Source: a virus. Taken from it: a DNA stretch of 64,000 bases. Positions 3,841-62,619 of the stretch are shown piece by piece (position 1 is the stretch's first letter; the number at the start of each line of letters is the position of its first letter). The stretch lies in the IMG/VR virus record IMGVR_UViG_3300029049_000006; one strand, 5' to 3'. The notes beneath the pieces are model-generated. The model was not told where the DNA came from, ran no database searches, and saw only the letters and a program-made list of their open reading frames with translations. Made by a program: the position numbers and the translations under genes.

Positions 3841-3861
3841 AATTTGCAATGATTGCAAATT
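3841..3861. promoter_or_regulatory. 21-bp palindrome copy (AATTTGCAAT-G-ATTGCAAATT)
   Basis: Perfect inverted repeat directly after stop codon 3837-3839, upstream of capsid gene. Confidence 0.8.
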
Positions 3862-4015
3862 TTATTGACGCCCTACTGCCCCTTTGTTAGTCAAACGTTA
3901 AGCACATGCGTATTTTTTACATGCAGCGCGTCCAGAAATCCGCGAAAGTACGGCGGCTGTCTGTGAGGAATGATTGCAGCATTTTCGCTTAACAGTCTAA
4001 CCGCTACAAAAAACA

Positions 4016-5674
4016 ATGTTGACCGAAGAACAGAAAAAGCGCCTTGCCGCTCTCCATATTAAGGATGCCGCAGCCCTCACCGAACAGGAACAGAAGGAAC
4101 TTGCCGCACTGACCACTATGGCCGAAGTGGACGGGTTATCTATTGACGACGCCTTTATGGCACAGTATGGCCCGACCGAAGACCGACCCCTGACCGGCGA
4201 CGAGCTGAAAAAGCACATTTCCGACGCCGTAACCGAGGGCCTGAAACACTACTCCGGGAATATGGACGTGTCCAAGCTGGCCGAGGAAATCACGAAAAGC
4301 CTGAACATTCCGGACACCGGGAAGGGGATTGCCCCCGAAGACCTGAAATCCGCGGTGGCTTCCGCCCTCAGCGCAGAAGCTATCATTGAGAGCCTGCAAA
4401 GCAAGCTGCCCACCGTACCGGGCGAGGACCAAATCAAGAAACTAGTGGAAGAAGTTGTGAACGCTAACCTGCGCAACCAGTCCAAGAACTTTTACCCCGT
4501 TGACGAAGACATCAACGTGCCGCTTTCCGGCCACAAGGGCAACCTGTCCGTGGCGGAATACCAGCTCCTGAACATCTGCAAGATGACCGGCAAGGTTATC
4601 GACGCGAAAAACGTCCCCACGGACATCAATGACGGCATCCCCGAATCCGTCCGGAAGTCCGCCGAACAGGCCGGGGCCAAGTTCGTTCAGTCGCTGAGGA
4701 TGGGCCGGAAGGATGTGTTCACCACCGGCGACGGGCACATCTTCCCGTCTGACCTGTCCAGCACTCTGCTTTACAGGCTGTATCTTGAGTCCCAGTTGGC
4801 CGCCGCGCTGATTTCCCAGGAAATCCCGATGCCGACCGACCCGTACACGCTGCCTATTGCCACCACCCGCATTAAGTACCGCAAAGGTTCCGAAGCCCCG
4901 GCTACTACGACTGCGGATAAAATCGGCCTGTCCGACGTTACGCTGAAAACGGCGAAACTTATCGGCATTACCGATTTCTCCTATGAAGCGGCCGAAGATT
5001 CCATCATTCCGGTGCTTCCCATGCTCATGGACGACCTGGCCAAAGGTGCGGTGGAATCCCTGGAAAACGCCATCATCAATGGCGACACGGCGTCAACCCA
5101 CCAGGACAAGGACATCACGGCAGCCGACGATGCCGCCAAGCTGTTTGACGGACTCCGCAAGTTCGCTCTGGCGCAGGCTTCCTGCAAGGTTGACATGGCA
5201 ACCGGCGGCATCTCCGCCGCGTCCATCCTCAAAATGAAAGCCTCTATGGGCAAATACGGCCTGCGCCCCTCCGACCTGCTTCTGGTCGTGTCCGCCTCCG
5301 GCTACAACACCATGCTTGGGCTGGATGAAACGCTGACCGTGGACAAGGCGGGGCCTGGGGTCGCAAGAATCCTTACCGGCGTTGTGCCGTCCATCTATAA
5401 CATCCCGATTATCGTGTCGGAAGCCATCAAGGCCACCAACACTTCCGGCGTTGTGGATGCCACGGACACCAACAACATCAAGGATTCCCTGCTTCTGCTC
5501 TACAAGCCGTCGCTGATTCTCGGCTCTCGACGGGGCTTCACCGTGGAATCCGAAGTGGACAAGAAGCGCCAGGTCAACAGCCTGATTGCTTCCTTCCGCA
5601 GGGACTTCAAACTTAAGGAGCCGCTTTCCAGTGCGCCTACGGTCATTCTCGGCTACGGTGCGCCTATCCTGTAA
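4016..5674 (+). CDS. major capsid protein (HK97-fold type) with N-terminal coiled-coil delta-like domain
   Basis: 552 aa; follows prohead protease; N-terminal ~120 aa EQKK/EL-rich coiled coil like HK97 gp5 delta domain; followed by strong terminator. Confidence 0.6.
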   Translation: MLTEEQKKRLAALHIKDAAALTEQEQKELAALTTMAEVDGLSIDDAFMAQYGPTEDRPLTGDELKKHISDAVTEGLKHYSGNMDVSKLAEEITKSLNIPDTGKGIAPEDLKSAVASALSAEAIIESLQSKLPTVPGEDQIKKLVEEVVNANLRNQSKNFYPVDEDINVPLSGHKGNLSVAEYQLLNICKMTGKVIDAKNVPTDINDGIPESVRKSAEQAGAKFVQSLRMGRKDVFTTGDGHIFPSDLSSTLLYRLYLESQLAAALISQEIPMPTDPYTLPIATTRIKYRKGSEAPATTTADKIGLSDVTLKTAKLIGITDFSYEAAEDSIIPVLPMLMDDLAKGAVESLENAIINGDTASTHQDKDITAADDAAKLFDGLRKFALAQASCKVDMATGGISAASILKMKASMGKYGLRPSDLLLVVSASGYNTMLGLDETLTVDKAGPGVARILTGVVPSIYNIPIIVSEAIKATNTSGVVDATDTNNIKDSLLLLYKPSLILGSRRGFTVESEVDKKRQVNSLIASFRRDFKLKEPLSSAPTVILGYGAPIL

Positions 5675-5714
5675 ATCTGTGTGACCCCATAGATTACTTG
5701 TAATTTGTATTTTA

Positions 5715-5758
5715 GCCGGGAGGCATACATTGTATGCTTTCCGGCTTTTTCTTTGATT
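5715..5758 (+). terminator. intrinsic terminator after capsid gene
   Basis: Hairpin CCGGgagGCATAC-att-GTATGCtttCCGG then CTTTTTCTTTGATTTT. Confidence 0.55.
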
Positions 5759-5785
5759 TTCAATTTTTTCCATCTCACCCACCGC

Positions 5786-9864: not shown

Positions 9865-9884
9865 AATTTGCAATCATTGCAAAT
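9865..9884. promoter_or_regulatory. 21-bp palindrome copy
   Basis: AATTTGCAATCATTGCAAAT between 9341..9847 and 9910..10485. Confidence 0.8.
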
Positions 9885-9909
9885 CGTCCATCCAACCGCA
9901 CAATCTACT

Positions 9910-10678: not shown

Positions 10679-13600
10679 ATGGCCCAGGCGAATCAACAGG
10701 CGGAGCGTATTATTTTTGACGCGGAAATTTCTTCCGCGCAGTCAAACCTGGCAAAACTGCGCACGGAATTGAATCTGATAGTGGCGGCGGCGGCAAAGAC
10801 CAATGCCGCCCTTTCACGGATTAACCTGTCTGGGATGTTTGGCGGGGCCGGGGCGTCAGGAAAAGGGCTTTCCGGGATGGCGGGCGGCGTAAACGCGTCA
10901 AAGACACTTGCCGCAGCGCAGAATGCCGCCACTATGTCAACAAACAGACTGACCACGGCTATGCGGGCCGGGGTAGGCACGGCGGGAGCCTACAGCAGAG
11001 CATTGGCCGGGGCCGCCGCATCAGCCGGGCTATTATCCGGAAGCCGTATCGGCCAGACAATCAATACGGCGAGAGCACCCATGCGCGGGGCCAAAGCGGA
11101 ATCTGACGGGCTGCGTTCCAGCTTTTCCGGCGTAGGGCTTGCGGCTACAGGGGCCGCCGTGGCGGTGCTGGGCTTTGCCACCAAGCTCACGGGCATCATC
11201 CGGGAATCTTCGGAAGCCGCATCCAACATGCAGCAGCTGAATACTGTTTTTGGCGTATTGCTGCAAAGTCAGTCCAAAGGCTCTGCACTTCTTGAAGAGG
11301 TCACGCAGTTTGCCGCCGCCACGCCTATGAAGGTTCCGGAATTGGCCAATGCTACGCGGGTTTTGCTGGCCTACGGCGAAAGCTCCACAACCGTCATGAG
11401 CACTCTCCGGAGGCTGGGCGATATTGCGGCCGGCACAGGACAGCGCATTGATGAAATCGCCACCCTTATCGGTAAGGCGCGGCAGGCTGGCCGCCTGTAC
11501 GGGGACGACCTGAACCGCCTGAATGACCGCGGCATTCCTCTTACTGCTACATTGGCGAAGAATTTCGGCATCACCACCATGGAAGTCCGAAAGCTGGTAG
11601 AGCAGGGGCGGGTAGGGTTTTCCGCGCTGGAAGACGCTATCAACGAAGTAACCAACGAGGGCGGCCTTTTTTACGGCATGCTGGAAAAGCAGTCCAAAAA
11701 CTATGGCGGCGTGATGTCCACGTTGGAAGATAATATTACTCTGGCGAAAAAAGCATTTGGCGCACCTATCAACAACGCCCTGACGCCCATTCTGCAGGAT
11801 GCCATTGAAATGCTCAAGGAAATGAAACCCCAGTTCACCGAGCTGGGTGAGGCAATGGCCCCGGTAGTCGCCAGTCTGGTCACGGCGTTCAAAGACCTTG
11901 TCGTCTGGATTGGCGAAAATGGAAAGCAGGTTTTAAACCTTGTGCAAACCTACGGCCCCCTTGTGGCTAAGGCTTTGGCATTGGCGGCGGCAGTCAAAGC
12001 CGCCCAAATGGTGTTTGGCGCTCTTGGCGCCATTGTCCGGGGGATTACTGGAACCATAGGCGGGTTTACATCAATAATCACCACAGCCGCTTCGGCAGTG
12101 ATAAACCTGGGTTCCACCCTTGACCGCCTTGCGGTCAAATATGCGACTGCCGGGGCGGCGGCCAGTGCCGCAGGGGCACAGATAGCCGCCTCTTCCGCAA
12201 TGATGGGGGCTGCTTCCGCCGGGGCTGCTACCGCAGGCGCTGGCAGAGCTGCCGGGGCCGGAATTGCCGGGGCGGCTGCGGGGGGGGCCGCTGCATCAGC
12301 CGCAGGGGCGGCGATACGCGGTCTTTCCACCGGCTCAAAAGTGTGGTCAGTGGTAAAGGGTGTGGGAGGCAAGCTGGGGGGAATACTCGGCACTCTTACC
12401 GCGCTGGATATTTTGGGCAAGGTCAGCACAGGCCTGTTTTCCGGCGACGCTTCTCTGTCTTGGGGGGCCAAGCTTAATTATGGGATAGCCGGCGTTCTTG
12501 GCCTGGCAAGCTTCATCCCTAAAATCGGATGGATTACCGGCCCCCTGGGCGAGTGGTTTGCGTCAATGGGCAACGACATCAAGGAGGCGGACACGGCGAA
12601 ATACATGCAGGGCCAGTATTCACAGGCGCTTAAATCCGCACCCGGCAAAGGCCTTAAAAACGTTTACCGGAAACAGCTGCTCAATTTGTTTCAGTCGGAA
12701 GAATCCGGGACGCGGGGCGACCGAACGGTTTCCTCCGTGCAGGAAGAATTGCGGCAGGAAATCTCAAGGCAGACTGCGATACTTGATAAACAACTCCGCG
12801 ATAACACGGCTATTTCTGACGGGCAAAAAGCTTTGCTCAAGCGCCGCCTTGAATACCTTCGCAGCATTGACGATGCCACCATATCCCGGTGGACGGAGCA
12901 GTTGCTTGACGAGACGAAAAACGCAGCCGGACGGGCCAAGTATGATGCGGTCATTGCCGCCGAACAGGAAGCCGCCAGACGGGCGAATGAGGAACGGAGA
13001 GCCGCCGAACGTTATGGTCAGGTCAAGGACAACCGCGTTAAATTACAGGAAGCGGAAATCAGGTACGCGTCCGGAATAGACCAGCAGATGTTCTGGTGGC
13101 GCAGGCGGCGGACGGCATTGCAGGAAGCGCAGCCTGACGTTCAAGCGCTGCTGACCGGCCCGGACACCGGAGCCTACATGACGGAAAAGCTTGGAGCCGA
13201 TTTCCGCATCCGGGGGACCGAAGACATTAAAAAAGTGCTGGACGCGGCAGGGGAATCCGAAGACACGGTAATTTTTGCCAGCGAAAATGTGCTGAACCTC
13301 CAAAAAGCCTACGAGAAAATTCTCGACTACGAAAAGGAAGAGAAAAAACTCCGGGATTCCAAGCAGGAATATGACAAACAGGAGGAAGCGCGGACGCGGA
13401 GCCTCAACGTGCTTAAACAGAAACTCTATCTTGACCAGGCTTACGCCGCAGGGCTTATCAACGCGGAACAGCGGACGCAATACGAAGACCAGCTCAAGGC
13501 TATTGATGCGGCAAAATCTTTTATGGATGCCGGCATGGACCGGGAGGAAGCCATGCAGATGGGCGTGGCTTCGGTGGAAGCCGAACGGAAGGCGGCGGGA

Positions 13601-13879: not shown

Positions 13880-13899
13880 AATTTGCAATCATTGCAAAT
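13880..13899. promoter_or_regulatory. 21-bp palindrome copy
   Basis: Immediately after TMP stop codon. Confidence 0.8.
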
Positions 13900-13907
13900 C
13901 AGGAATT

Positions 13908-17674: not shown

Positions 17675-17695
17675 AATTTGCAATCATTGCAAATT
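17675..17695. promoter_or_regulatory. 21-bp palindrome copy between divergent genes
   Basis: AATTTGCAATCATTGCAAATT. Confidence 0.8.
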
Positions 17696-17746
17696 TCAGA
17701 AATCAATGTTGCCCATGAAAATTCAGGCGGCTATAGTGTCAAAGAC

Positions 17747-20523: not shown

Positions 20524-20542
20524 AATTTGCAATCATTGCAAA
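20524..20542. promoter_or_regulatory. 21-bp palindrome copy
   Basis: AATTTGCAATCATTGCAAA after spanin-like stop. Confidence 0.75.
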
Positions 20543-20569
20543 CCGGAAAAACCGGTAGTTCAAGGCCGT

Positions 20570-22495: not shown

Positions 22496-22516
22496 AATTT
22501 GCAATCATTGCAAATT
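22496..22516. promoter_or_regulatory. 21-bp palindrome copy
   Basis: AATTTGCAATCATTGCAAATT. Confidence 0.8.
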
Positions 22517-26293: not shown

Positions 26294-26312
26294 AATTTGC
26301 AACGATTACAAA
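26294..26312. promoter_or_regulatory. degenerate palindrome copy (AATTTGCAACGATTACAAA)
   Basis: 3 mismatches to consensus. Confidence 0.4.
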
Positions 26313-26322
26313 AATCAACAAC

Positions 26323-32620: not shown

Positions 32621-32744
32621 AATTTGCAATGATTGCAAATTTTTTTCGTGAATTGAATACTTTTATCTTGCAATTTTCATTTTTTAGTGTTATAACAAAC
32701 CCATCAAAGGGCGAAAGCCCTGAATCAATAAAAACATCACCAAT
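32621..32744 (+). promoter_or_regulatory. palindrome plus promoter plus structured-leader cassette (variant)
   Basis: Palindrome 32621-32642; TCTTGCAATT ... TATAAC; leader hairpin GGGC-GAAA-GCCC (32709-32720); A-rich; ATG 32745. Confidence 0.6.
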
Positions 32745-34729: not shown

Positions 34730-34868
34730 AATTTGCAATCATTGCAAATTTTTTTCTCAAAAAAGATTCTTTTTCTCTTGCAATTCATCAAAAATAATGC
34801 TAAATTGTGTTCATCAAAGGGAGGAAAGCTCCTAAGAATAAAAAACCTAAATTAGAAAGACCAAAACA
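34730..34868 (+). promoter_or_regulatory. palindrome plus promoter plus structured-leader cassette
   Basis: Palindrome 34730-34750; TTTTTCTCTTGCAATT; TAATGCTAAATT; hairpin GGAG-gaaag-CTCC 34820-34832; AGAATAAAAAACCTAAA; ATG 34869. Confidence 0.65.
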
Positions 34869-39910: not shown

Positions 39911-39920
39911 CTCTTTTCCT

Positions 39921-39939
39921 ATTTGCAATGATTGCAAAT
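39921..39939. promoter_or_regulatory. 21-bp palindrome copy
   Basis: ATTTGCAATGATTGCAAAT followed by T7. Confidence 0.8.
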
Positions 39940-39972
39940 TTTTTTCGCAAAAACCAGAAACAGAAATAAACC

Positions 39973-43749: not shown

Positions 43750-43893
43750 AATTTGCAATCATTGCAAATTTTTTTCGCTGATTGTGTAATTTTATCTTGC
43801 AATTTCTAAAAAATAATGCTAAATTACATTCATCAAAGGGAGGGAATCCCTGAGAGAAAAAACCTAAAAACCTAAAAAACCTGTTAGACTAAA
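43750..43893 (+). promoter_or_regulatory. palindrome plus promoter plus structured-leader cassette
   Basis: Palindrome 43750-43770; TCTTGCAATTTCTAAAAAATAATGCTAAATTAC; hairpin AGGGA-gggaa-TCCCT 43837-43851; A-rich; ATG 43894. Confidence 0.65.
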
Positions 43894-44481: not shown

Positions 44482-44484
44482 ACA

Positions 44485-44623
44485 TTTGCAACGATTGCAA
44501 ATTTTTTTCTCAAAAAGATTCTTTTTTCTCTTGCAATTTCTAAAAAAGAATGATAAATTGAGTTCATCAAAGGGAGGGAAACCTCCCAAGAATAAAAAAC
44601 CTAAAAACCTGAAAGACAAGATT
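44485..44623 (+). promoter_or_regulatory. palindrome (1 mismatch) plus promoter plus structured-leader cassette
   Basis: ATTTGCAACGATTGCAAAT; TCTTGCAATTTCTAAAAAAGAATGATAAATTGAG; hairpin GGGAGG-GAAA-CCTCCC 44572-44587; ATG 44624. Confidence 0.65.
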
Positions 44624-45276: not shown

Positions 45277-45324
45277 CTGCCCCCTTTTCCGGCATTCCGT
45301 TGCTGGGAAGGGGGCAGTTTTTTT
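45277..45324 (+). terminator. intrinsic terminator
   Basis: 10-bp stem CTGCCCCCTT/AAGGGGGCAG, ~21-nt loop, T7. Confidence 0.55.
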
Positions 45325-45488: not shown

Positions 45489-45532
45489 GGCCCCTAATTC
45501 GGAGTGATGCCCGGATTAGGGGCCTTTTTTTT
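45489..45532 (+). terminator. strong intrinsic terminator
   Basis: 10-bp perfect stem GGCCCCTAAT/ATTAGGGGCC, 16-nt loop, T8. Confidence 0.7.
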
Positions 45533-45536
45533 CTTC

Positions 45537-45681
45537 AATTTGCAACCATTGCAAATTTTTTTCTCAAAAAGATTCTTTTTTCTCTTGCAATTCAGAAAAA
45601 ATAATGCTAAATTACATTCATCAAAGGGAGGGAATCCCTAAGAGAAAAAACTTAAAAACCTAAAAAACCTGTTAGACTAAA
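45537..45681 (+). promoter_or_regulatory. palindrome (1 mismatch) plus promoter plus structured-leader cassette
   Basis: AATTTGCAACCATTGCAAATT; same cassette as 43750; ATG 45682. Confidence 0.65.
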
Positions 45682-49216: not shown

Positions 49217-50071
49217 ATGGCAACTGATAATGATGACGAGTTTTCCGGTTTTTTCGGGGACGATTCCGGCGGATTTTTCGATGAACCCCAGGAACCTTCC
49301 AGCGCCCCAGATACCCCGGAATCACAGGAGGAAGCCCCGCCGGAGGAACCTGACGAAGACGAGGATGACGGGGAACTTAATGAGCTTGCCGGGACTGGCG
49401 CCGGAACGGTCGCACGCCTGAACCCGGAGATTCGACATCAGATTATGGCCCAGGCCAATTCCCGCGCCTGGACGCGCCATGAACGCCATGTTGTCATGCG
49501 CCGGGCCATGTCGGCGGGAAAGCTGGAAGAGATTATTGACTGGTACCCGCGTTCCGGACAGAGCATCCACATTTTATCTTGTGGGGAGGTAGATTTGTTT
49601 TCCTACTTGCATTTCATGCTCCGTCAACGCCCCTATGCCTACATTTTGCTTTCGACATTCAGCCTCGGCTACATGGAAATTCGCAACCTGCACGAGTATC
49701 TGGAAAAAGGAGTGATTGGCCGCCTGGATGTGTATGCCGGAAGCATTTTCCGCAACCGGACTATCCGGACGCGGGAATATGATGCGCTGGTTGCCCTGCA
49801 CCAGAGATTTCCGCATTGTTTTTGCGGTCTGGCAAATGTCCACGCGAAAGTCATTGCCGGGATTGACCGGGACAATGGGGAAGGCGACTTTGTTGTAGAG
49901 GCCAGTGCTAATGCCAACCTGAATTTCCGCGTTGAGCAGGCTTGTCTGACGATGGACACCGATTTGGCGCTTTTTTACAAGGAGGCGTTTGACGGCGTGG
50001 ATTGCCCGCAGGATGCCCAGTATTTTAAGGATGTGAGGCGGACTCCGTGGGTGGTTGACCGGAAAAGCTGA
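49217..50071 (+). CDS. hypothetical protein with acidic N-terminus
   Basis: 284 aa. Confidence 0.4.
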   Translation: MATDNDDEFSGFFGDDSGGFFDEPQEPSSAPDTPESQEEAPPEEPDEDEDDGELNELAGTGAGTVARLNPEIRHQIMAQANSRAWTRHERHVVMRRAMSAGKLEEIIDWYPRSGQSIHILSCGEVDLFSYLHFMLRQRPYAYILLSTFSLGYMEIRNLHEYLEKGVIGRLDVYAGSIFRNRTIRTREYDALVALHQRFPHCFCGLANVHAKVIAGIDRDNGEGDFVVEASANANLNFRVEQACLTMDTDLALFYKEAFDGVDCPQDAQYFKDVRRTPWVVDRKS

Positions 50072-50206
50072 TTTGCAATCATTGCAAATTTTTCCCGGCA
50101 ATCCTGATTTTTTCTCTTGCAATTTGTCAAAAAGAATGCTAACTTATATTCATCAAAGGGAGATAAAACCTTAAAAATAAAAAACCTAAAAACCTGTTAG
50201 AATAAG
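50071..50206 (+). promoter_or_regulatory. palindrome plus promoter plus leader cassette
   Basis: ATTTGCAATCATTGCAAATT abutting stop 50069-50071; TCTTGCAATTTGTCAAAAAGAATGCTAACTTATATTC; degenerate hairpin; ATG 50207. Confidence 0.6.
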
Positions 50207-51437: not shown

Positions 51438-51821
51438 ATGAGCAACAATTATTGTTTAAAAGCTTCCGGCAAGCAGATTGTCGAACTCGCGCGGTTAATG
51501 GATGTGCATTCCAGACGCACCGGATTTGATGAGCCGATATTGTACCTGGGAGATGCCTGCCGCCTGGAACCCATTCCCTACTCCAAAGTGTATGCGACTT
51601 GCGACACGCCCCGGATATTTTCCGCATGTCTGGTGGATGAATCCAGCTCCCATGACCTGATGGAGCTGACTGACCTGTTTGGTGTGGTAGGCTTGTTCCC
51701 TCATCACCCCCGGCTGCTTCCGTCTTATTTCAGCACGCAAAAATTAAAGTTCTGCGGGGAATATGTCTCCGTATATTGCGCGTATATTTACGTTCCTGAA
51801 CATCCTGATTTTTTGCAATGA
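51438..51821 (+). CDS. hypothetical protein
   Basis: 127 aa; stop codon lies inside palindrome. Confidence 0.4.
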   Translation: MSNNYCLKASGKQIVELARLMDVHSRRTGFDEPILYLGDACRLEPIPYSKVYATCDTPRIFSACLVDESSSHDLMELTDLFGVVGLFPHHPRLLPSYFSTQKLKFCGEYVSVYCAYIYVPEHPDFLQ

Positions 51822-51831
51822 TTGCAAATTC
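51811..51831. promoter_or_regulatory. 21-bp palindrome copy
   Basis: TTTTGCAATGATTGCAAATTC. Confidence 0.75.
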
Positions 51832-52934: not shown

Positions 52935-53006
52935 ATAGCCGCAAGGGAACTCCGGGGAAATAATCTTCCCCGGAGCTTTTTTATTCCTCCCCCGATTTCC
53001 TTTTCC

Positions 53007-53144
53007 AATTTGCAACGATTGCAAATTTTTTTCTCAAAAAAGATTTTTTTCTCTTGCAATTTCTAAAAAAGAATGATAAATTACATTCATCAAAGGGAGG
53101 GAATCCCTGAGAGAAAAAAACAAAAAACCTAAATTACTGATACC
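53007..53144 (+). promoter_or_regulatory. palindrome (1 mismatch) plus promoter plus structured-leader cassette
   Basis: AATTTGCAACGATTGCAAATT; cassette as 44485; hairpin AGGGA-gggaa-TCCCT; ATG 53145. Confidence 0.65.
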
Positions 53145-54014: not shown

Positions 54015-54268
54015 TGAAACGGAACCCTCACATCATCGTCCAGCAGGTTTGCCCCATGAAAAAAATTGACAATGGGAAATACGAAGTGCAGGCCGCGATT
54101 GTGCACCACAAAGGGATTATCGCCCGATTTCGCATGGAGTACCCCACGAAACGGCATGCCCGGTGGGCGCAGCACCTTATTTGCACGACAAGGAATCATA
54201 CCCGCAGGCGAGCATTTGGTGAATTAAAGGCTATCATTGACGGGAAGGTGGCACATAGTGCTGTTTGA
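54014..54268 (+). CDS. hypothetical protein
   Basis: ATG 54014 in frame of ORF 54002..54268. Confidence 0.3.
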   Translation: MKRNPHIIVQQVCPMKKIDNGKYEVQAAIVHHKGIIARFRMEYPTKRHARWAQHLICTTRNHTRRRAFGELKAIIDGKVAHSAV

Positions 54269-54309
54269 CCTTGCACAGCTTATAATTTTAAAACAGAGAA
54301 AAGAAGAAA

Positions 54310-54630
54310 ATGAAACTGACGCCTGAACAGAAAGTATTTATCGAATACGGAAAAGCAAAGAAAGCTCTTGAGATAGCTAAAAAGCAATTAGCGAAAGAAA
54401 TGCGCCGGTATTTATCCCGGCATCAGGCGCGGGATTATAATAATATTGATATTTTAATCCGGGATGTCTGGCGGAAGCGTGCCGCGTGCAGGGACTGGGT
54501 GGCAGTCCCTCTGGCGAATCGTAATTGTGAGAATTGCGCTAATAGCGTAGTTAATCCGATTCCGGAAGTTTGCAAGATTTGCATGATGACTAACTTTTCC
54601 GGCTGGGAACCTATAAAATGGAATAAATAA
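54310..54630 (+). CDS. zinc-ribbon protein, tandem paralog 1
   Basis: N-terminal TPEQ..F.EYGKA; C..W...P...R.C..C-x11-C..C; ends WEP. Confidence 0.5.
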   Translation: MKLTPEQKVFIEYGKAKKALEIAKKQLAKEMRRYLSRHQARDYNNIDILIRDVWRKRAACRDWVAVPLANRNCENCANSVVNPIPEVCKICMMTNFSGWEPIKWNK

Positions 54631-54631
54631 A

Positions 54632-54982
54632 ATGACACCTGAGCAAGAAACATATAAAGAATATGGAAGGGCGCAAGAAGCCCTTCATCAGACAATCAAG
54701 GAGATAAAAAAAGAATCCTTTTTTACTTTTGGGAAGCCATATTGCAAGCTTACGAAGTTGGAAAGGGAGAGTATATCCCATGCTTTGGGTTTATGCGATA
54801 AAGTCCGCTATGTCCGCAAAATGCGTACCGCATGCCGGACATGGGCATTCACGCCCATGAACAAACGCTATTGTGATGACTGTCGATATTACTGCACATC
54901 CGTCTCGGATGGCCCCTGCAGAGAATGTTGCCGGCGGCTGGAACCTGTAAATTGGGAACCTAGAAAGGAGAACAAAAACTAA
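54632..54982 (+). CDS. zinc-ribbon protein, tandem paralog 2
   Basis: Same architecture; starts 2 nt after paralog 1 stop. Confidence 0.5.
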   Translation: MTPEQETYKEYGRAQEALHQTIKEIKKESFFTFGKPYCKLTKLERESISHALGLCDKVRYVRKMRTACRTWAFTPMNKRYCDDCRYYCTSVSDGPCRECCRRLEPVNWEPRKENKN

Positions 54983-55353
54983 TGAAAATGACACCTGAAC
55001 AAAGAGCCTTTTTTGAGTATGGGAAAGTACAAGGAGTTGTCGAAGATACGGAAATCGAGATTAACCTTGCCTCCCCTAAAGGGGGTATGCCGCCTATAAC
55101 GTTTAATAAGGAGTTTTCTTTAAAAGAGGGCAAAAAACTAGCCGAGAAAAAACAGGAGATATGTCTGGGCTGGGCAATTCCATACCGCAAAAGGCGGTGC
55201 GTAAACTGCCTGCACCGGAAAACGCGTTCATGTGACCCTCCATGTGATTTGTGCTTCCGTAATGTTAAAGGCGGCTTATTCGACTGTTCGGACAGGGAGG
55301 GTAAAGAAGAATATGGGGATTTCTGGGAGCCGGAAACCGGGAAGGAAGAATAA
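54982..55353 (+). CDS. zinc-ribbon protein, tandem paralog 3
   Basis: Same architecture; TAATGA junction. Confidence 0.5.
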   Translation: MKMTPEQRAFFEYGKVQGVVEDTEIEINLASPKGGMPPITFNKEFSLKEGKKLAEKKQEICLGWAIPYRKRRCVNCLHRKTRSCDPPCDLCFRNVKGGLFDCSDREGKEEYGDFWEPETGKEE

Positions 55354-55354
55354 A

Positions 55355-55468
55355 ATGATTGATGCAATCTCCAATATGCTGGGCATGGCTCTCATATTTA
55401 CCATAGCGTACTTGTCTTATTTAATCGGCAGGCAGGACGCTGGCAAAAATGAAAAAAGAAAGAAATGA
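55355..55468 (+). CDS. hypothetical 37-aa membrane peptide
   Basis: MIDAISNMLGMALIFTIAYLSYLIGRQDAGKNEKRKK. Confidence 0.25.
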   Translation: MIDAISNMLGMALIFTIAYLSYLIGRQDAGKNEKRKK

Positions 55469-55842
55469 AAAAGACTACTGAACAAACAGCCTTTTATTGG
55501 TACGGATTTTATAAAGCCTGCCTGAAATTAAAAATTAAAGAGGCCCGCAATTATGCTGAGTGTGAATACGGGAGGCAATACGGTGAGCTGGCATCAGCGG
55601 GGCGAGAAGAGTGCCTGGTATATGCCGGGGTCAGGTCTTACATTATTCTGACCCGAAGAGCACGCCGCTCATGCCGGTTATTTGGCATACCCAGCGCTGA
55701 ACGGTCATGTGTTAATTGTGCGTATGTCGATTTATTGCATTACCAGCCGCCATGTAATAATTGCCTTCGTTCCCCGTATGCCGTGCATGGAGAAACAACC
55801 GACGATGCCTGGAAGCCGACTGGAAAATGGCAAATTCCATAA
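55465..55842 (+). CDS. zinc-ribbon protein, tandem paralog 4
   Basis: Same architecture; ATGA overlap. Confidence 0.5.
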   Translation: MKKTTEQTAFYWYGFYKACLKLKIKEARNYAECEYGRQYGELASAGREECLVYAGVRSYIILTRRARRSCRLFGIPSAERSCVNCAYVDLLHYQPPCNNCLRSPYAVHGETTDDAWKPTGKWQIP

Positions 55843-56765: not shown

Positions 56766-58256
56766 ATGCACCAGGACACCGACGCAGAAAATGCCGCCAG
56801 TCAGAGCCGGTTGAACGAAACCGCCATGCTGATTCCCCGGCTGCTGTTAAAAGCCCGTACTGATTTTATTGCATTTTTGCTTGCCATTTCCGACGACGAA
56901 TCCGGCTACATCCTGTCCCGAATGCACCTGTTTATTGCGGGCAAGCTCAATGATACCGTCACCCGGAAGGACGTGCCGAGGAATTACACTATTTCCGTAC
57001 CACCCCAGCACGGGAAGTCCTCCCTGATTGTGCGGTATGTCGCGTGGCTGGTTGGGTCTTATCCCAGATTGTGCGTTGCCCTGACCGGCTTCTCCGCTGA
57101 ATTGATGGGTCAGATGCTCCGGCAGGTCACATCCATTATGGATTTGCCCGTGTACCAGGTAATTTTTCCCGGAGTGAAAGTGAAGCCGAAGGATGACCGC
57201 TGGGACTATAAACGGTTCACCAATGACGCTATTATTTATGCTAAGCCGGCAGGCTCCAAGCTGACCGGGAGGCGGGTGGACATCCTCATTATTGACGACC
57301 CCCATGCCGGACGTGCCGAAGCCGAATCCCCCACTATCCGCAACCGCGTTGTGCAGTGGGCAGTTGCAGACTGCTTTTCCCGCCTTTCGCCTCATTGGCG
57401 GGTGTTTGTCATTGGAACCCGGTGGCATCCGGAAGACCTCATTGGACATCTCACCGGGCGGGAATACAATAAACGGCTTGAAATGCTTGGCAATACCGCC
57501 ATGAAATTTGAAGTCATCAAGATTCCCGCTATCTGCGAAGACCCGGCTACCGACCCCCTGGGGCGGAAGGCTGGGGAAGTAGCATTCCCGGAAGAGCGTG
57601 ACTTGGAGTTTTTAACATCCATCCGTGGGGCCATGACTACGACAGAATGGAAATCCCAGTATCAGCAGGAGCCGGTCACGTCCAAGGGCGGGCAGGTCAA
57701 CGCGGACGATTTTAACCTCATTTCCCCGGAGGAAGTGCCGTGGAGCGAGCTGACGGCCATAGGCTCCGGCTGGGACTTGGCCGCAACCGACAAAACGGCA
57801 TCCGACTGGACCGTGGGCGCATGCGGGGCGCGGACAAAGGATGGCCGCCTGTATATTTTCGACCAGTTCCGCAGGCAAATGCAGATTCCAAAACTGCTTC
57901 CGGCCATTGAAGCCCGCGCCCTGGCGTGGAAAGATATGTACGGGGCCAATCAGCTGGGCGTGGAAGGCGTGGGGGGCATGGTGGGGTATTATCAGCAGCT
58001 CCGGCAAATGCTCCTGGGAAAAATCAGCGTGCGGCTCAAAAATCCCCCGGTCAAAGGAGGGGGAAAACTGGTGCGGGCGCAAAACTGGCTGGCTCTGGTG
58101 GAGGCAAAAAAAGTGTATCTGGTACAGGCTCCCTGGGTGCGGTCGTTTCTGGAAGAGGTGGAAGTATTCCCGGACGGGGACCACGATGACCAGGTGGACA
58201 GCGTATCCATTCTTTACGAGCTTCTGTTTCTCTCCGCCCGCATTCTGGTCGGATAG
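56766..58256 (+). CDS. terminase large subunit
   Basis: PQHGKSS P-loop, VDILIIDDPH Walker B, VIGTRWH, C-terminal RNase-H-like nuclease with DLAATDK and DHDDQVDS. Confidence 0.8.
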   Translation: MHQDTDAENAASQSRLNETAMLIPRLLLKARTDFIAFLLAISDDESGYILSRMHLFIAGKLNDTVTRKDVPRNYTISVPPQHGKSSLIVRYVAWLVGSYPRLCVALTGFSAELMGQMLRQVTSIMDLPVYQVIFPGVKVKPKDDRWDYKRFTNDAIIYAKPAGSKLTGRRVDILIIDDPHAGRAEAESPTIRNRVVQWAVADCFSRLSPHWRVFVIGTRWHPEDLIGHLTGREYNKRLEMLGNTAMKFEVIKIPAICEDPATDPLGRKAGEVAFPEERDLEFLTSIRGAMTTTEWKSQYQQEPVTSKGGQVNADDFNLISPEEVPWSELTAIGSGWDLAATDKTASDWTVGACGARTKDGRLYIFDQFRRQMQIPKLLPAIEARALAWKDMYGANQLGVEGVGGMVGYYQQLRQMLLGKISVRLKNPPVKGGGKLVRAQNWLALVEAKKVYLVQAPWVRSFLEEVEVFPDGDHDDQVDSVSILYELLFLSARILVG

Positions 58257-58266: not shown

Positions 58267-58289
58267 AAATTTGCAATGATTGCAAATTT
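58267..58289. promoter_or_regulatory. 21-bp palindrome copy
   Basis: AAATTTGCAATGATTGCAAATTT. Confidence 0.8.
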
Positions 58290-58608
58290 CAGAGACCGCG
58301 CCCAAAAGCTTTTTTCCTTTACTTTTCACTTTTCCGGCACAAACAATACCAGCCCATGAAGTTCCACAGCCTTTCCATGCTTTTTACGCTCCGTGGCCCT
58401 CCCCGCCCTGTTTTTCAGCTTGTCCCCCAGGCAATCCGCGAACGGTCGGATGCGCGAGGACGGGAACGCATCATTTCCCGCGTCTGAAATAAATGGCTTT
58501 CACCATCAGGCGCAATCTCCGCATTTCCTTTTTCTGTTGCCTTCGCCGGATTGCCCCCCCTCGTCAGGAAGGGAACGGCAAACCGTAACCATAAACAAAA
58601 AGATAGAA

Positions 58609-59484
58609 ATGACAGTTCAAACCTTACCGGCAACCGTGCCGGACAGCGTTTCTGCGACCTTGCGCGTCGTCATGAAGCCCGTGGAATCAATTCACCCCTA
58701 CGAAAATAACCCCCGCTACAACGACAGCGCGGTTCCCTACGTCAAAAACTCAATTCAGGAGTTCGGCTTCAAGGTTCCGATTATCGTCGATGAAGCCGGA
58801 AGCATTGTCTGCGGTCACACGAGGTACAAGGTGGCCCTGGAATTGGGCATGAGCCATGTGCCTTGCATTGTCGCTTCGGATTTGACCCCAAAGCAGATTC
58901 AGGCGTTCCGCCTTGTTGATAACAAGGTGTCGGAGTTTTCAAGCTGGGATTTTTCCAAACTTGAAATTGAGATAGGGGAGCTGGATGCCGAATTTAATCT
59001 TGATGACTTCGGTTTTTTCTCCGATTCAGAGCGGGCGGGAAGCTCGCCGGCGGATGTGGGCAGTGCCGCAGAAATGCAGGATGATACTGCGAGGGATGAC
59101 CGGAATATCTATACAGGACGCATCATTACTCCGGTTTATGAAATTACCGGGGATTGTCCAAAAACCGAAGAGCTGGTTGACCGCACCAGAGCGGAATCCC
59201 TGCTGGAAGAGATTGACCGGACCCCAGGGCTTCCGGATGCCGTGCGTGACTTTTTGCGTATTGCCGCCATGCGGCACTATGTCCTGCATTTCGACAGGAT
59301 AGCCGAGTTTTACGCCCATGCGGTCCCTCCTGTGCAGCGGCTCATGGAAAACTCCTGTCTGGTCATTATTGATTATGACCGCGCCATTGAACTTGGATAT
59401 GTGCAAATGGCACGTGCCCTGGCCGATGAATATGACCGAGAATACCCGGAAGGGGAAGAACAGGAAGGAGGCAGCGAATCATGA
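58609..59484 (+). CDS. ParB-like nuclease-domain protein with conserved C-terminal domain (paralog A)
   Basis: IHPYENNPRYNDSAVPYVKNSIQEFGFKVPIIVDEAGSIVCGHTRYKVALELG matches ParB/Srx N-terminal domain (NPR...SI...G...P..V....G..R..A); C-terminal domain shared with 62638..63480. Confidence 0.6.
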   Translation: MTVQTLPATVPDSVSATLRVVMKPVESIHPYENNPRYNDSAVPYVKNSIQEFGFKVPIIVDEAGSIVCGHTRYKVALELGMSHVPCIVASDLTPKQIQAFRLVDNKVSEFSSWDFSKLEIEIGELDAEFNLDDFGFFSDSERAGSSPADVGSAAEMQDDTARDDRNIYTGRIITPVYEITGDCPKTEELVDRTRAESLLEEIDRTPGLPDAVRDFLRIAAMRHYVLHFDRIAEFYAHAVPPVQRLMENSCLVIIDYDRAIELGYVQMARALADEYDREYPEGEEQEGGSES

Positions 59485-60416
59485 TGCGGCACTCTGATTT
59501 CTGCGTCCTGATTATTTCCCATGGACGGGCCGGGAGGGTGAAAACCCTGAACGCGCTTGAGCGTTTTGGCTATAGCGGCCCCTGGTACATTATTATCGAC
59601 AATGAGGATTCACAGGCCGGGGACTACCTTAATTGCTATGGGAGTGACCACGTTGTTGTTTTTGATAAACCCCTTGAGGCATCCAGGCTGGACATAGCGG
59701 ATAATTTTACAGGCCGTCTTGGGCGCAAAAGTACCGTGTACGTACGCAATGCGAGCTTTGACATTGCCCGCCGCCTGGGATTCCGGTATTTCATGGTGCT
59801 GGACGACGATTACGACTATTTCCGTTTCGTATTGGACAGCAACCGCCGCTATACTTGCCGGCGCTGTACCTGTCTGGACACAATCCTTGACATCTGCCTC
59901 GATTACTTCACCCGTACACCGGCCCTTGCCACCATAGCGTGGCTTCAAGGCGGCGACCTGCTGGGAGGGGCCAACTCCAACAGCCTTTTCAGCCTCCGGC
60001 GAAAAGCCATGAACAGTTTTATCTGTGACACGGAACGCCCCTTTTCCTTCATGGGCCGGTTTAATGAAGACGTGAACACCTACATCACTCACGGAAACCG
60101 GGGAGTGATCATGTTCTCAATTACGGAATTGGCGCTTAACCAGGCCAGCACCCAGCAGACGACGGGAGGGATGACGGAAGCCTACCAGGAAAACGGAACC
60201 TACGTGAAATCGTTTTACAGTGTCATGCATATGCCGTCTGCGGTGAAAATCCGGACAATGGGCGAACATTACCGAAGAATCCACCATGCTATTACATGGA
60301 ATAATTGTGTGCCGAAAATCATCCGTCCGGAGTACCAGAAACCGGATATTGTGCGGGGTGACAGAAGAAAACGCGGCAGGAGCCGAAAAAAACTGCTTGC
60401 AATTCCGGCCCCTTAA
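59481..60416 (+). CDS. hypothetical protein with DxD-like LDDDY motif (possible GT-A-fold nucleotide-sugar transferase), paralog A
   Basis: FCVLIISHGRAGRV...WYIIIDNEDS...FMVLDDDYDYF pattern resembles GT-A strand-loop-DxD layout; ATGA overlap with ParB-like gene. Confidence 0.4.
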   Translation: MMRHSDFCVLIISHGRAGRVKTLNALERFGYSGPWYIIIDNEDSQAGDYLNCYGSDHVVVFDKPLEASRLDIADNFTGRLGRKSTVYVRNASFDIARRLGFRYFMVLDDDYDYFRFVLDSNRRYTCRRCTCLDTILDICLDYFTRTPALATIAWLQGGDLLGGANSNSLFSLRRKAMNSFICDTERPFSFMGRFNEDVNTYITHGNRGVIMFSITELALNQASTQQTTGGMTEAYQENGTYVKSFYSVMHMPSAVKIRTMGEHYRRIHHAITWNNCVPKIIRPEYQKPDIVRGDRRKRGRSRKKLLAIPAP

Positions 60417-60538: not shown

Positions 60539-60928
60539 ATGTGTACTGCAGGAAACCGGGGGCTTGTTTTCTTTCCCCCCTCAGGGTATAACGGCGGCGT
60601 TATGATTGCCTTGAATACTCCTATTGCCACCATACCGGGGCGCCGGTACTGCATCACCACAGTATCTTCCGTCCAGGTGATTGCCGTCATTGACGACGAA
60701 GAGTTTGATTTGCTGGGGGGCCTTCCCATTACTGGCCAGGCGCAATTTGTCGCCCCCACGGACCACATTGAGGTGCGTGACGCGTCAGCCCCGGAAGAAG
60801 GGGCGGCGGCCAGCGCATCGGAATCATCCCCAGAAACGTCAAGCGTCATGTTTGACGGCTCTGCAACGCCCCTTGCCGGAGACGCGGCTTCCGTGTCCGG
60901 GAGCATCGTCGAAATTGTACGCAGTTGA
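60539..60928 (+). CDS. hypothetical protein
   Basis: In-frame ATG of ORF 60530..60928; opposite-strand ORF looks like an antisense artifact. Confidence 0.3.
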   Translation: MCTAGNRGLVFFPPSGYNGGVMIALNTPIATIPGRRYCITTVSSVQVIAVIDDEEFDLLGGLPITGQAQFVAPTDHIEVRDASAPEEGAAASASESSPETSSVMFDGSATPLAGDAASVSGSIVEIVRS

Positions 60929-61220
60929 CAAGCTATCCCGGATTTGGCAGGATGCTCCCTGCATGCGCGACGCGCTTCAAAGGCGTGGATTGAGGCGATA
61001 AGGGCATGCTTTCGCAGGGTGTATGTGTGGGAGACGTAATGAGCTCTCCCCTTCCCCTGCGGCAAACGGGAACAACAAAAAAGGGGATGCCCTTCCTTTT
61101 TTCCAGGATGGCCGCAGTTTTCCGCTGTGGGGAAAGAAGGAAGGGTATTTTTCCGCCTCCAATTTTTCTTTTTATTCTTTGTGCCTGATGCAGATTCCTC
61201 CCCCCCCTGATAAATTCCGA

Positions 61221-61979
61221 ATGCACTGTATCATTCCCCTGAAAGCACGCTCTATGCGTTGCCCAGGAAAAAATTTCAGAACCTGCAACCCGTATCTTTC
61301 CGGGGGCCTGATTCCGCTGTGGGAAGTGTCGGCCAGGTACGTCAGGGGCGAGGGATGGGAACCAGTTATTTCCTGTGACAGTCCGGAATTGTTGCATGAT
61401 ATTTCCCGGCGCGGATATGAACGCACTGTTTTATGGCATCCTGACCCGGAATCCCCATATATGCAGGGCCACATCAGTCAGGTTGCCGCGCAGATTAACG
61501 CCGGGGATTCCGACCTGCTTTGCGTAGTCCAGGCAACTTCCCCGGTAAGACGGCCCGGACTGCTTCGGGACATGCACACCTTGATGTCATCCGATACCAA
61601 TATTCAGGTGGCTTTTACAGGGGAACGCCTGAAAATTTGCGGCATCCTGAATGGCTCTCTTTTTGGGCAGGATGAAAGCCAGTCCGCCCGGCACTGGTAC
61701 GACCACTATGACGGGGCGCTTTTACTACTGCGCTATGATACTCTGAAACGCTGCCCCCCCCGAACAGTCGTGCATCCAGGGCTGCTGTCCGGCCCCAGTG
61801 ATAAAGTGGCCGTGTTTTACCAGACCCTGCCTTGGTCATTCCAAATCGACACGGAAGACGATTATTCCTTTTATCTGCAACTGCGGCGGCCTGATGCGGA
61901 AAAACAGTCAGCCTTCCGCAAACGGTCGAACCCGTACCGGGTATATACAAAAAGCGCAGCCCCTGATGAATTGGCATGA
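61221..61979 (+). CDS. CMP-sugar synthetase (acylneuraminate/KDO cytidylyltransferase family, CTP_transf_3-like)
   Basis: HCIIPLKARSMRCPGKNFRTCNPYLSGGLIPLWEV (ilAR.nSKglP.KNl...G.pLi); VISCDSPEL; LLCVVQATSPVRRPGLLRD (QPTSPLR). Confidence 0.65.
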   Translation: MHCIIPLKARSMRCPGKNFRTCNPYLSGGLIPLWEVSARYVRGEGWEPVISCDSPELLHDISRRGYERTVLWHPDPESPYMQGHISQVAAQINAGDSDLLCVVQATSPVRRPGLLRDMHTLMSSDTNIQVAFTGERLKICGILNGSLFGQDESQSARHWYDHYDGALLLLRYDTLKRCPPRTVVHPGLLSGPSDKVAVFYQTLPWSFQIDTEDDYSFYLQLRRPDAEKQSAFRKRSNPYRVYTKSAAPDELA

Positions 61980-62575
61980 TTGTATTGGTAGGAAATGCCC
62001 AGGAATCCGAACACCGGCTTAAAGACTGCTCCGCTTTTATTGATTCCGGCAAGCCCCGGCTGGTGGTGAGGGTGTCGAAAATGTGCAACTATGATTCCGG
62101 AAAAACCGGAACGCGCTGTGACTGGGTGTTCCTCAACCCTAATCCCATGTACTGGACCTTTCCGCCAGAGCGCCGCCATTGGAATGTGCTTGCCGGGGCC
62201 AGTAAAATCATCATCACCTATCCCCCTCCCGGAAGCCTGAAAGAAGGGCCTTGCATTCCTCCGTACTGGCAAAAGGAAGAATACCGGTTTCTGCACCAGC
62301 ACCCTTTTCTGGAATATTTGCCGGAGGCGGTGTTCCGGGAAGGGATGGACCGGCGGCTGACGACGTTCGGATTTGCCCTGTGGGTGCTTTCGCGGCGTTT
62401 CCCGCATGAGCAGATAGCCCTGCATGGGTGCATTACCTCGCAGAATGCGTGGCGCCGTGTCCGCTGGTGCCCCTGGCACAATGGCGTTGGCGAGTTTGCC
62501 CTGTATGCCAATCTGTCCCGGAACGGTCGGATTTTCAGGCTGGACGGCGGCGAATTATGCTTTAATGAGGATTGA
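61976..62575 (+). CDS. hypothetical protein, CstII/GT42 sialyltransferase-like (tentative)
   Basis: MIVLVGNAQES ~ CstII KKVIIAGNGPS; GTRCDWVFLNPNPMYW ~ GKKCKAVFYNPSLF; ATGA overlap with cytidylyltransferase. Confidence 0.35.
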   Translation: MIVLVGNAQESEHRLKDCSAFIDSGKPRLVVRVSKMCNYDSGKTGTRCDWVFLNPNPMYWTFPPERRHWNVLAGASKIIITYPPPGSLKEGPCIPPYWQKEEYRFLHQHPFLEYLPEAVFREGMDRRLTTFGFALWVLSRRFPHEQIALHGCITSQNAWRRVRWCPWHNGVGEFALYANLSRNGRIFRLDGGELCFNED

Positions 62576-62597
62576 AACCATGCTAAGAATCCATGAG

Positions 62598-62619
62598 AAT
62601 TTGCAATCATTGCAAATTT
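62598..62619. promoter_or_regulatory. 21-bp palindrome copy
   Basis: AATTTGCAATCATTGCAAATTT. Confidence 0.8.

Follow-up and report, generated by a model that had tools for sequence, protein, structure and literature searches.

A dispersed 21-bp palindrome at the gene junctions of an uncultured human-gut phage is a candidate site for a phage-encoded dimeric regulator

The 64,000-nucleotide stretch analysed here (IMG/VR record IMGVR_UViG_3300029049_000006; the whole stretch is called the window) belongs to the genome of an uncultured tailed phage from the human gut, about 83 kb in size, and carries 18 copies of a 21-bp palindrome, AATTTGCAAT(C/G)ATTGCAAATT, dispersed along it. Its genes lie nearly all on the plus strand. 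Profile searches add adaptor and neck protein genes to a structural set that includes a head protease, a capsid protein and a tape measure; besides DnaB and PolA, the replication and recombination genes encode RNase H, a primase, a helicase, RecA/UvsX, RuvC, a resolvase and a Cas4-like exonuclease, and a block of about 12 kb of small genes without assigned function is followed by TerL. Near-identical contigs of 82–92 kb were found in human-gut metagenomes and in IMG/VR, one of which (3300014804_000005, 83.6 kb) provided the remaining 19 kb of the genome. Since 12 kb of the window gave no megablast match among cultured phages and the best tblastn match of TerL reached 33% identity, no annotated relative was usable for guidance. 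The host is probably a member of the Bacteroidota, as suggested by a BACON-domain protein, the gut source and promoters fitting TTG-N20-TAnnTT.

The palindrome is far too frequent to be a product of chance: the form AATTTGCAATSATTGCAAATT matches exactly at eight positions (3841, 17675, 22496, 32621, 34730, 43750, 58268 and 62598) and 17 times in the window with up to two mismatches, against no match in 100 dinucleotide-preserving shuffles. A previous interpretation made from the letters of the window alone (the sequence-only reading) had counted 14 exact copies, a figure that holds for the 15/17-bp core (T)TTGCAAT[C/G]ATTGCAA(A), whereas over 21 bp only the eight are perfect. The three one-mismatch variants that it listed are present, each with T>C at position 10 (44483, 45537 and 53007), as is the degenerate copy AATTTGCAACGATTACAAAAA at 26294; most of its coordinates stand, and five are shifted by 1–2 nt, the true starts being 39920, 44483, 50070, 51810 and 58268. 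Seven further copies in the 19 kb outside the window bring the genome total to about 25. The centre base is C in 10 and G in 8 of the window copies, and C in 13 and G in 11 across the genome (24 copies), so that many invariant copies with a variable centre are spread genome-wide with no orientation bias, as in other dispersed dyad repeats. Outside elements and promoters, TTGCAA was seen 13 times against about 31 expected, a mild avoidance that we do not use as evidence. A scan of 185,579 bacterial and archaeal genomes with the 17-bp core gave, among the matches listed, scattered single matches in unrelated phyla, which indicates that the element is not a host motif and has no obvious prophage counterpart.

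All 18 copies lie between open reading frames (ORFs) or overlap a stop codon, and 15 of them start within 25 nt of the upstream stop, which agrees with the placement just after stop codons described before. Starts range from 12 nt before the stop (51810 and 50070) to 25 nt after it; two copies contain the upstream stop codon themselves, and for some, inside tail or replication operons, the next ATG is only 7–8 nt away. Next to copy 20524, the otherwise compact genome opens into an 830-bp non-coding gap (20545–21375; AT-rich, 40% GC). Direct repeats of 45 nt, inverted repeats and (TA)n runs occur in it, together with six isolated half-site-like motifs of the type TTGCA/TGCAA (three TTTGCA, two TGCAAA). 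This gap may be a replication origin or a regulatory hub.

Comparison of the window with strains 93–99% identical to it revealed that the arms are constrained. Arm positions 2–9 and 13–18 showed no difference in 630 comparisons, against 108 in 3609 (3%) in the 40-nt flanks; about 19 arm differences would be expected at the flank rate (binomial P of about 5e-9 by our calculation). The earlier argument that the sequence, and not only the hairpin, is conserved is thus strengthened by arms that stay invariant while their flanks drift. The most variable position was the centre (4 of 45), which changes solely between C and G. Such flips occur at the orthologous copies 3841, 39920 and 45537 and at the site after TerL, which has C as its centre in L413–415, relatives with 95% TerL identity. 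Moreover, an asymmetric centre, CGA, was found inverted as TCG and can replace TCA in one step. The flips and this transfer indicate that sequence passes between copies or that copies invert, which is what a palindrome folding now and then during replication should do; this concerns how copies mutate, not what they do. All 18 sites are occupied in every strain covering them, and strain indels and replacements do not end at copies. A mobile repeat of the REP/RAYT or miniature inverted-repeat transposable element type was rejected on account of this full occupancy and the lack of any transposase family match.

Each arm contains the heptamer TTGCAAT, which recurs unchanged as the -35/-33 box of the repeated promoters; the sequence-only reading had noticed the resemblance. 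The repeated early promoter, predicted from sequence like all promoters in this work, reads TCTTGCAATT-N15-TAAATT and is followed by a conserved leader. In nine of nine early-promoter modules, including the inverted minus-strand one at copy 17675 and one outside the window, the distance from the element centre to the start of the -35/-33 box is 37–38 bp; the intervening spacer differs in sequence from module to module and is constant in length. Copy 17675 does lie between divergent promoters, one on the minus strand and a promoter-like site on the plus strand. For about half of the copies a recognisable promoter is nearby. Given the constant spacing, the T-run after promoter-linked copies may equally well be DNA upstream of the promoter or the tail of a terminator. 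Across lineages, with distances measured to the next TTGAC or TTGCA box, the centre lies 14–18 bp from the box in L121, L237, L123 and window copy 3841 (a TTGACG box beginning 14 bp from the centre), 24–27 bp in L232, on the plus side of copy 17675 and at L121:6150 (27 bp; a copy inside an ORF), 37–38 bp in the early modules of the window and 46 bp in L420. These classes appear to step by about one helical turn, as for a factor facing RNA polymerase, an argument to which we give moderate weight because it was noticed afterwards and the promoters are predicted.

The conserved leader, about 45 nt long (CATCAAAGGGAGGGAATCCCTGAGAGAAAAAACCTAAAAACC), comes after the repeated early promoter at 32668, 34778, 43797, 44531, 45585, 50117, 51348 and 53054, upstream of small genes, and comprises a short GGG/CCC hairpin and an A-rich tract. 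RNAalifold gave no covariation support for this leader hairpin, and the leader was not used as an internal control. Three promoter-type explanations of the palindrome were discarded. It is hardly a promoter itself, with no -10/-7 element at a steady distance and some copies 7–8 nt from an ATG; an N4-type hairpin promoter finds no virion RNA polymerase gene and a centre base that is unbiased and flips; and for a sigma-54 site the TTGCA boxes are 9 bp apart instead of 11–12 bp and the GG box is missing. A sigma/anti-sigma site, which the sequence-only reading had also proposed, has nothing in its favour beyond the heptamer common to arm and promoter.

As RNA, the palindrome is predicted to fold into a hairpin of -6 kcal/mol, with a 9-bp stem containing two G-C pairs and A-U pairs at its base, which is not the stable G+C-rich hairpin of an intrinsic terminator. 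In such terminators a G+C-rich stem base beside the U-tract normally favours release. The genome has canonical GC-rich terminators of its own (-9 to -28 kcal/mol), three of which lie 12–31 nt upstream of copies 43750, 45537 and 53007, with one just downstream of copy 20524. The order at the first three is stop, terminator, palindrome, T-rich stretch, promoter. DNA at these three copies and at copy 17675 is expected to be little transcribed, as it falls in terminator-promoter gaps or between divergent promoters. The T-run had been described as frequent: at least five T directly follow seven of the 18 copies (32621, 34730, 39920, 43750, 44483, 45537 and 53007), copy 50070 has three extra T, a U-tract directly 3' can be counted in 7–8 of the 18, and ten have none; the T-run is not kept in related lineages. 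Nor is structure kept while sequence is free, as no compensatory pair occurs among about 25 copies and the arms are unchanged in the strain comparison. The mismatches of imperfect copies are C.A or A.C and not G.U wobbles. The claim that the element is more than a weak AU-rich terminator is strengthened by the canonical terminators beside copies, the copy in non-transcribed DNA between divergent promoters and the 37–38 bp spacing. Rfam gave no match at the gathering threshold across the whole window. Beside copy 45537, the non-coding region 45155–45536 contains two strong terminators about 175 nt apart (45281–45314 and 45489–45524, the latter at -28 kcal/mol) and may encode a small RNA; Rfam at a relaxed threshold on 45150–45560 returned nothing credible.

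The element is also found in related phages. Relatives whose TerL is 42–43% and PolA 40% identical (L121, L190 and L237, 57% GC; L123, 64% GC; L232, 45% GC) carry TGCAAC-W-GTTGCA elements at about 10 per 21 kb, and the core TGCAAY-N-RTTGCA is invariant over the range of 45–64% GC. Among these elements are sites at the same junctions, after PolA (32621) and after TerL (58268). In the stretches available, the proteins common to the window and the element-bearing relatives are TerL, PolA, DnaB, the protease and two small ORFs. A frequent intergenic form in L121 and L237, TTGAAAC-T-GTTGCAA (5 of 15 listed copies), has an uncompensated C>A that places an A.G mismatch in mid-stem (predicted folding 0 kcal/mol) and forms the TGA stop of the upstream gene within the element, often with the next ATG directly after; the element is thus kept even without spare room and without a hairpin. 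Furthermore, arm and promoter box vary together, being TTGCAAT/TTGCAAT in this phage and TTGCAAC/TTGACAAC in the relatives. More distant TerL relatives have multi-copy palindromes of their own within a TTG-N8-10-CAA frame (Table 1), where a T-run after the element is not shared and A-runs or nothing are seen in its place. IMG/VR pattern scans with TTGCAACWGTTGCAA and TTTGAAACTGTTGCAA for the rest of the relative 3300042560_001229 gave chance matches among the matches listed. In an unrelated phage contig, L238 (IMG/VR 3300046539_000052), AGTTGCAAC-N-GTTGCAACT occurs at least seven times within 4 kb, and each copy precedes a small minus-strand gene by about 18 nt; their core is that of the relatives described here, and no proteins are in common within the available stretch.

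The search for a protein that might read the element combined Pfam and PHROGs over concatenated ORFs with relaxed Pfam on ten small proteins. Two ParB_N-like paralogues adjoin copies 58268 and 62598; they match ParB in the N-terminal domain only (residues 4–97), have GHTR in place of GERRxRA and no detectable helix-turn-helix (HTH), and their C-terminal half has no PDB sequence match. A canonical ParB/KorB-parS/OB system was rejected for lack of a detectable HTH and of the GERRxRA box, and no ParB-like ORF was found in the sampled stretches of the element-bearing L121, L123 and L232. In the regions 58450–60416 and 62638–63480, the two paralogues, which are 51% identical, flank a TET-associated glycosyltransferase (TAGT), and an N6 DNA methyltransferase domain lies elsewhere in the window (46736–47509); together these genes hint at DNA hypermodification. 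For the zinc-ribbon paralogues that had been suggested as binders, no link with the motif was found, and some strains that have kept the palindromes lack three of the four. These proteins of about 110 aa, encoded in tandem at 54310–55842 immediately before the terminase genes, carry a CxxC...CxxC zinc ribbon at the C terminus; strains L115 and L119 have 82 nt in place of window positions 53756–55464 and have lost three of them. The product of 39365–39910, HTH-like by eye, is an ORFan with no family match and only near-identical homologues.

Table 1. Coordinates of the palindrome copies, predicted promoters and landmark genes in the window, with palindromes of distant TerL relatives
Feature	Coordinates	Strand	Sequence or state	Context
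Palindrome copy	3841..3861		perfect 21-mer, centre G	1 nt after stop, 154 nt before major capsid gene
Palindrome copy	9865..9885		pos 21 T>C, centre C	alone at tight junction, 24 nt before next ATG
Palindrome copy	13880..13900		pos 21 T>C, centre C	junction of tape measure and next tail gene, 7 nt before ATG
Palindrome copy	17675..17695		perfect, centre C	-35 box 37 bp from centre (minus side), 24 bp (plus side)
Palindrome copy	20524..20544		AAACC end, centre C	canonical terminator 20562-20583 after, then 830-bp AT-rich gap
Palindrome copy	22496..22516		perfect, centre C	32 nt before AAA-ATPase gene
Palindrome copy	26294..26314		degenerate, AATTTGCAACGATTACAAAAA	hairpin not formed (-0.7 kcal/mol)
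Palindrome copy	32621..32641		perfect, centre G	19 nt past PolA stop; T-run and promoter after; orthologous to L237:5414
Palindrome copy	34730..34750		perfect, centre C	T-run, then early promoter 38 bp from centre
Palindrome copy	39920..39940		pos 1 T, centre G	T-run after; no promoter; next ATG at 32 nt
Palindrome copy	43750..43770		perfect, centre C	between terminator 43723-43737 and early promoter 37 bp from centre
Palindrome copy	44483..44503		pos 1 C, pos 10 C, centre G	early promoter 38 bp from centre
Palindrome copy	45537..45557		pos 10 C, centre C	13 nt after -28 kcal/mol terminator 45489-45524; early promoter 38 bp from centre
Palindrome copy	50070..50090		pos 1 G, centre C	overlaps upstream TGA stop; early promoter 37 bp from centre
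Palindrome copy	51810..51830		TT at pos 1-2, centre G	TGA stop of upstream gene is the element centre
Palindrome copy	53007..53027		pos 10 C, centre G	31 nt after -19.6 kcal/mol terminator 52950-52975; early promoter 37 bp from centre
Palindrome copy	58268..58288		perfect, centre G	11 nt past TerL stop; orthologous to L121:11574
Palindrome copy	62598..62618		perfect, centre C	20 nt before second ParB_N-like gene
Predicted promoter	17648->17621	-	TTGCAA-16-TATGAT	drives lone minus gene 17603->17235; 37 bp to palindrome
Promoter-like site	17709..17737	+	TTGCCC-17-TATAGT	24 bp from centre of copy 17675
Predicted promoter	32668..32696	+	TTGCAA-17-TATAAC	goes with copy 32621; -35 box starts 37 bp from centre
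Predicted early promoter	34778..34806	+	TTGCAA-17-TAAATT	conserved leader
Predicted early promoter	43797..43825	+	TTGCAA-17-TAAATT	conserved leader
Predicted early promoter	44531..44559	+	TTGCAA-17-TAAATT	conserved leader
Predicted early promoter	45585..45613	+	TTGCAA-17-TAAATT	conserved leader
Predicted early promoter	50117..50145	+	TTGCAA-17-TAACTT	conserved leader
Predicted early promoter	53054..53082	+	TTGCAA-17-TAAATT	conserved leader
Head protease	2356-3171			
HK97-type capsid protein	4016-5674			
Tape measure	10679-13867			
BACON-domain protein	14723-17206			
DnaB	28473			
PolA	29719-32601			
TerL	56766-58256			
Palindrome of distant relative			TTGCACA-S-TGTGCAA	five copies in 7 kb, centre G or C
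Palindrome of distant relative			TTTTGACCA-T-TGGTCAAAA (TTGACCA-T-TGGTCAA)	
Palindrome of distant relative			TTTGTAAA-AC-TTTACAAA (TTGTAAA-AC-TTTACAA)	
Palindrome of distant relative			TTTGCAA-TT-TTGCAAA	
Palindrome of distant relative			TTGAAA-N4-TTTCAA	

Other features of the genome were recorded alongside the element. Assignment to the 'Flandersviridae' was dropped, as no sheath match was found and the head-to-tail genes (protease, capsid, adaptor, neck and tape measure) are siphovirus-like, whereas that family has contractile tails. No tRNA was found in the window. The gene at 17235–17603, the sole convincing one on the minus strand, encodes 122 aa with no family match and sits among tail and glycosyltransferase genes with an early-type promoter of its own. 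The AAA-ATPase gene (22549–25047) holds an intein with an HNH endonuclease (insert 23479–24303), and this 825-bp segment is cleanly missing in three related strains (L019, L045 and L056). Outside the window (3300014804_000005, loci L050 and L073), a PAPS-reductase/CysD-like protein, an EF-Tu-type GTPase (CysN-like) and an APS kinase look like a sulfate-activation set, which adjoins glycosyltransferases, a low-molecular-weight phosphatase and the portal gene.

Taken together, the reading that we prefer, with a probability of roughly 45%, is a dyad-symmetric site in duplex DNA at which a dimeric regulator encoded by the phage would work on promoters and gene junctions; a docking site for some sequence-specific protein would in any case fit the sequence data much better than a plain terminator. 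The recognition core would be TGCAAY-N-RTTGCA, extended in this phage to AATTTGCAAT-S-ATTGCAAATT, and the binder would probably be dimeric, phage-encoded and co-evolving with the element. At the promoter-linked copies, about half of the total, the protein would be centred 37–38 bp from the -35/-33 box, near -72 from the start site and in helical phase with the promoter, where it could modulate RNA polymerase, most plausibly turning strong early promoters off or on during infection. Stand-alone copies at cistron or module junctions might serve as a roadblock or insulator to elongating polymerase or mark module borders, which is the weakest part of the model. We infer protein binding, the reading of duplex DNA and the direction of the regulatory effect from the sequence patterns described above.

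Several observations weigh against this dimeric-regulator model. The model needs a second mode of action for the half of the copies near which no promoter can be recognised. The half-site spacing TTG...CAA is 8, 9 or 10 bp depending on the lineage, which is easier to reconcile with a hairpin loop than with a fixed dimer, and a hairpin would be expected just as much to change symmetrically in its two arms from one lineage to another. Copy identity could partly reflect gene conversion, given the centre flips and the CGA/TCG transfer, and the helical phasing was seen post hoc in four or five independent lineages with predicted promoters. Finally, Pfam and PHROGs gave no HTH, sigma, anti-sigma, repressor or integrase match over about 95 ORFs, ORFans remaining among them. 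Of the dimeric regulator or operator site put forward in the sequence-only reading, the argument for sequence-specific recognition is strengthened, and for the regulator itself these profile searches gave no candidate.

The main rival places the conserved sequence in RNA: a hairpin of fixed sequence would be read by an RNA-binding protein or endoribonuclease, with a Cas6-like, RegB-like or coat-protein-like logic, whose task would be to cleave the transcript between cistrons, make 3' ends more stable or adjust how strongly the following gene is translated. Copies exactly at stop/start junctions, some overlapping the stop or abutting the ATG, arms that change together across lineages with a varying loop length, and a sequence fixed within the genome would all suit such a protein. 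We nevertheless consider it unlikely, because four copies are in DNA where little transcription is predicted (past strong terminators or between divergent promoters), the common L121 variant has no stable stem, and imperfect copies carry C.A/A.C mismatches instead of G.U wobbles; furthermore, RNA offers no rationale for a 37–38 bp distance to the -35 box that is kept at the inverted copy 17675, and there is neither an Rfam match nor a linked RNA-binding or nuclease candidate. It is still less probable that the copies are weak, possibly bidirectional intrinsic terminators or attenuators whose identity is a by-product of duplication or gene conversion. They do follow stop codons, seven of 18 with at least five T (a U7–8 tract when the element's own TT is included), a genome with its genes on one strand needs transcription-unit boundaries, and gene conversion between copies is evident. 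However, a stem of -6 kcal/mol with A-U pairs beside the U-tract would be a poor terminator and a redundant one in the three cases where an ordinary terminator of -9 to -28 kcal/mol lies directly upstream; ten of 18 copies lack a T-run, some stand 7–8 nt before an ATG within operons, relatives show A-runs or nothing after the element and one non-folding variant, and the core is conserved across genomes from 45% to 64% GC. Accordingly, we see only a slim chance for this explanation.

A DNA site with a task outside transcription could be a ParB_N-like centromere or condensation site, a site for priming or replication initiation, or a cruciform target of RuvC or Holliday-junction resolvases in recombination-dependent replication. 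The fact that copies 58268 and 62598 are each followed directly by one of the two ParB_N-domain paralogues speaks for it, as do the RecA/UvsX, RuvC, resolvase and Cas4-like exonuclease encoded by the phage, the centre flips, which suggest hairpin formation during replication, and the isolated TTTGCA half-sites that cluster in the AT-rich gap at 20.6–21.0 kb, a possible origin. In addition, KorB of plasmid RK2, a member of the ParB family, binds a palindrome with a central S and the core TTTAGCGGCTAAA (PMC11790492). Yet the phage proteins match only the N-terminal ParB/Srx domain, with GHTR instead of GERRxRA and no HTH, sampled stretches of L121, L123 and L232 bear elements without a ParB-like ORF, strain indels and replacements do not end at copies, and strict junction placement and promoter phasing would be left unexplained; we rate such a role as rather improbable, though ahead of the terminator. 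The least credible explanation is a functionless repeat, selfish or homogenised by neutral processes, which persists only where no gene is broken. Although a 21-bp exact repeat in a compact genome can only lie between genes, and copies exchange sequence with one another, orthologous junctions keep their elements at about 40% protein identity, elements are squeezed into junctions without spare room and even supply the stop codon, the arms show no change against 3% in adjoining intergenic DNA, and promoter spacing is conserved.

An extension of the dimeric-regulator model to the whole clade (TerL 35–44% identity; gut and environmental members) is more tentative, and we would sooner doubt than accept it. 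Lineage-specific TTG-N8-10-CAA palindromes at most module borders, one to four helical turns upstream of promoters, would form a junction code read by a fast co-evolving regulator dissimilar to known DNA-binding families, which would time promoters and insulate units in a lytic phage. Identification of the binder would bring to light a family of regulators that present profile libraries miss, and would give a handle on the expression programme of gut phages whose probable hosts, to judge by the promoter type and a BACON-domain protein, are Bacteroidota. In human-gut metagenomes the phage is frequent enough to be repeatedly assembled into contigs of 82–92 kb.

Among known systems, CRP class I and phi29 p4 sites are dyads upstream of the -35 box at distances differing by whole helical turns; the element is like them in these distances and has no sequence relation to them. 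The OB sites of plasmid RK2 are scattered over the replicon, some close to promoters and some distant, and a global regulator of the ParB family binds them. OB is likewise a short palindrome with a central S base pair (core TTTAGCGGCTAAA; PMC11790492), but the phage proteins match the N-terminal ParB domain only, without a detectable HTH, and nothing links them to the motif. The PeSL cassettes of T4-like phages are repeated units of stem-loop and early promoter (PMC4122927), which the present modules of palindrome, T-run, early promoter and leader, at least eight in number and placed before small early genes, resemble; gene shuffling at their borders is proposed there, whereas strain differences here do not end at elements, half of the copies have no promoter and the stem-loop sequence is invariant. 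The gp71 stoperators of L5 (Cluster A) also number more than 20 genome-wide, lie in promoters and short intergenic spaces, act on initiation and elongation and have a lineage-specific consensus, but they are 13-bp asymmetric sites, bound by a monomer and in one orientation only, in temperate phages with a known repressor (PMC9283540). A stoperator system was rejected here because the palindrome is perfect, with a centre (C 13, G 11 in 24 copies) that flips between strains, and because no integrase or repressor family match was found in the window or the other 19 kb, where ORFans remain; in particular, no integrase was found in those 19 kb.

The closest published analogue appears to be the 17-bp dyad repeat 5'-TGTTCGGNNNCCGAACA of the Cluster O mycobacteriophages (Corndog and relatives), for which its authors predict a dimeric DNA-binding protein and leave the function of the repeat open (PMC4351075). 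Those phages, like this one, are siphoviruses of about 70–85 kb that are apparently not temperate and carry 25–34 copies of a short inverted repeat that is invariant except for its free centre and shows no orientation bias. The copies are mostly intergenic and do not coincide with the ends of indels; most of them are not tied to promoters, and ParB-like domain proteins are also present (PMC4351075). Sequence and host phylum are unrelated, and about one-third of the Corndog copies lie in genes as opposed to 18 of 18 at junctions here (PMC4351075). In contrast with Cluster O, half of the copies in this phage are phased with promoters, and the element family can be traced through distant relatives with lineage-specific arms. 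What dispersed dyad repeats do in non-temperate phages such as those of Cluster O is an open question that this phage makes testable through junction placement, the phased promoter distance, the inverted control at 17675 and the natural arm variants of its relatives. By analogy with these systems, we would file the element among the dispersed dyad-symmetric recognition sites of phage genomes.

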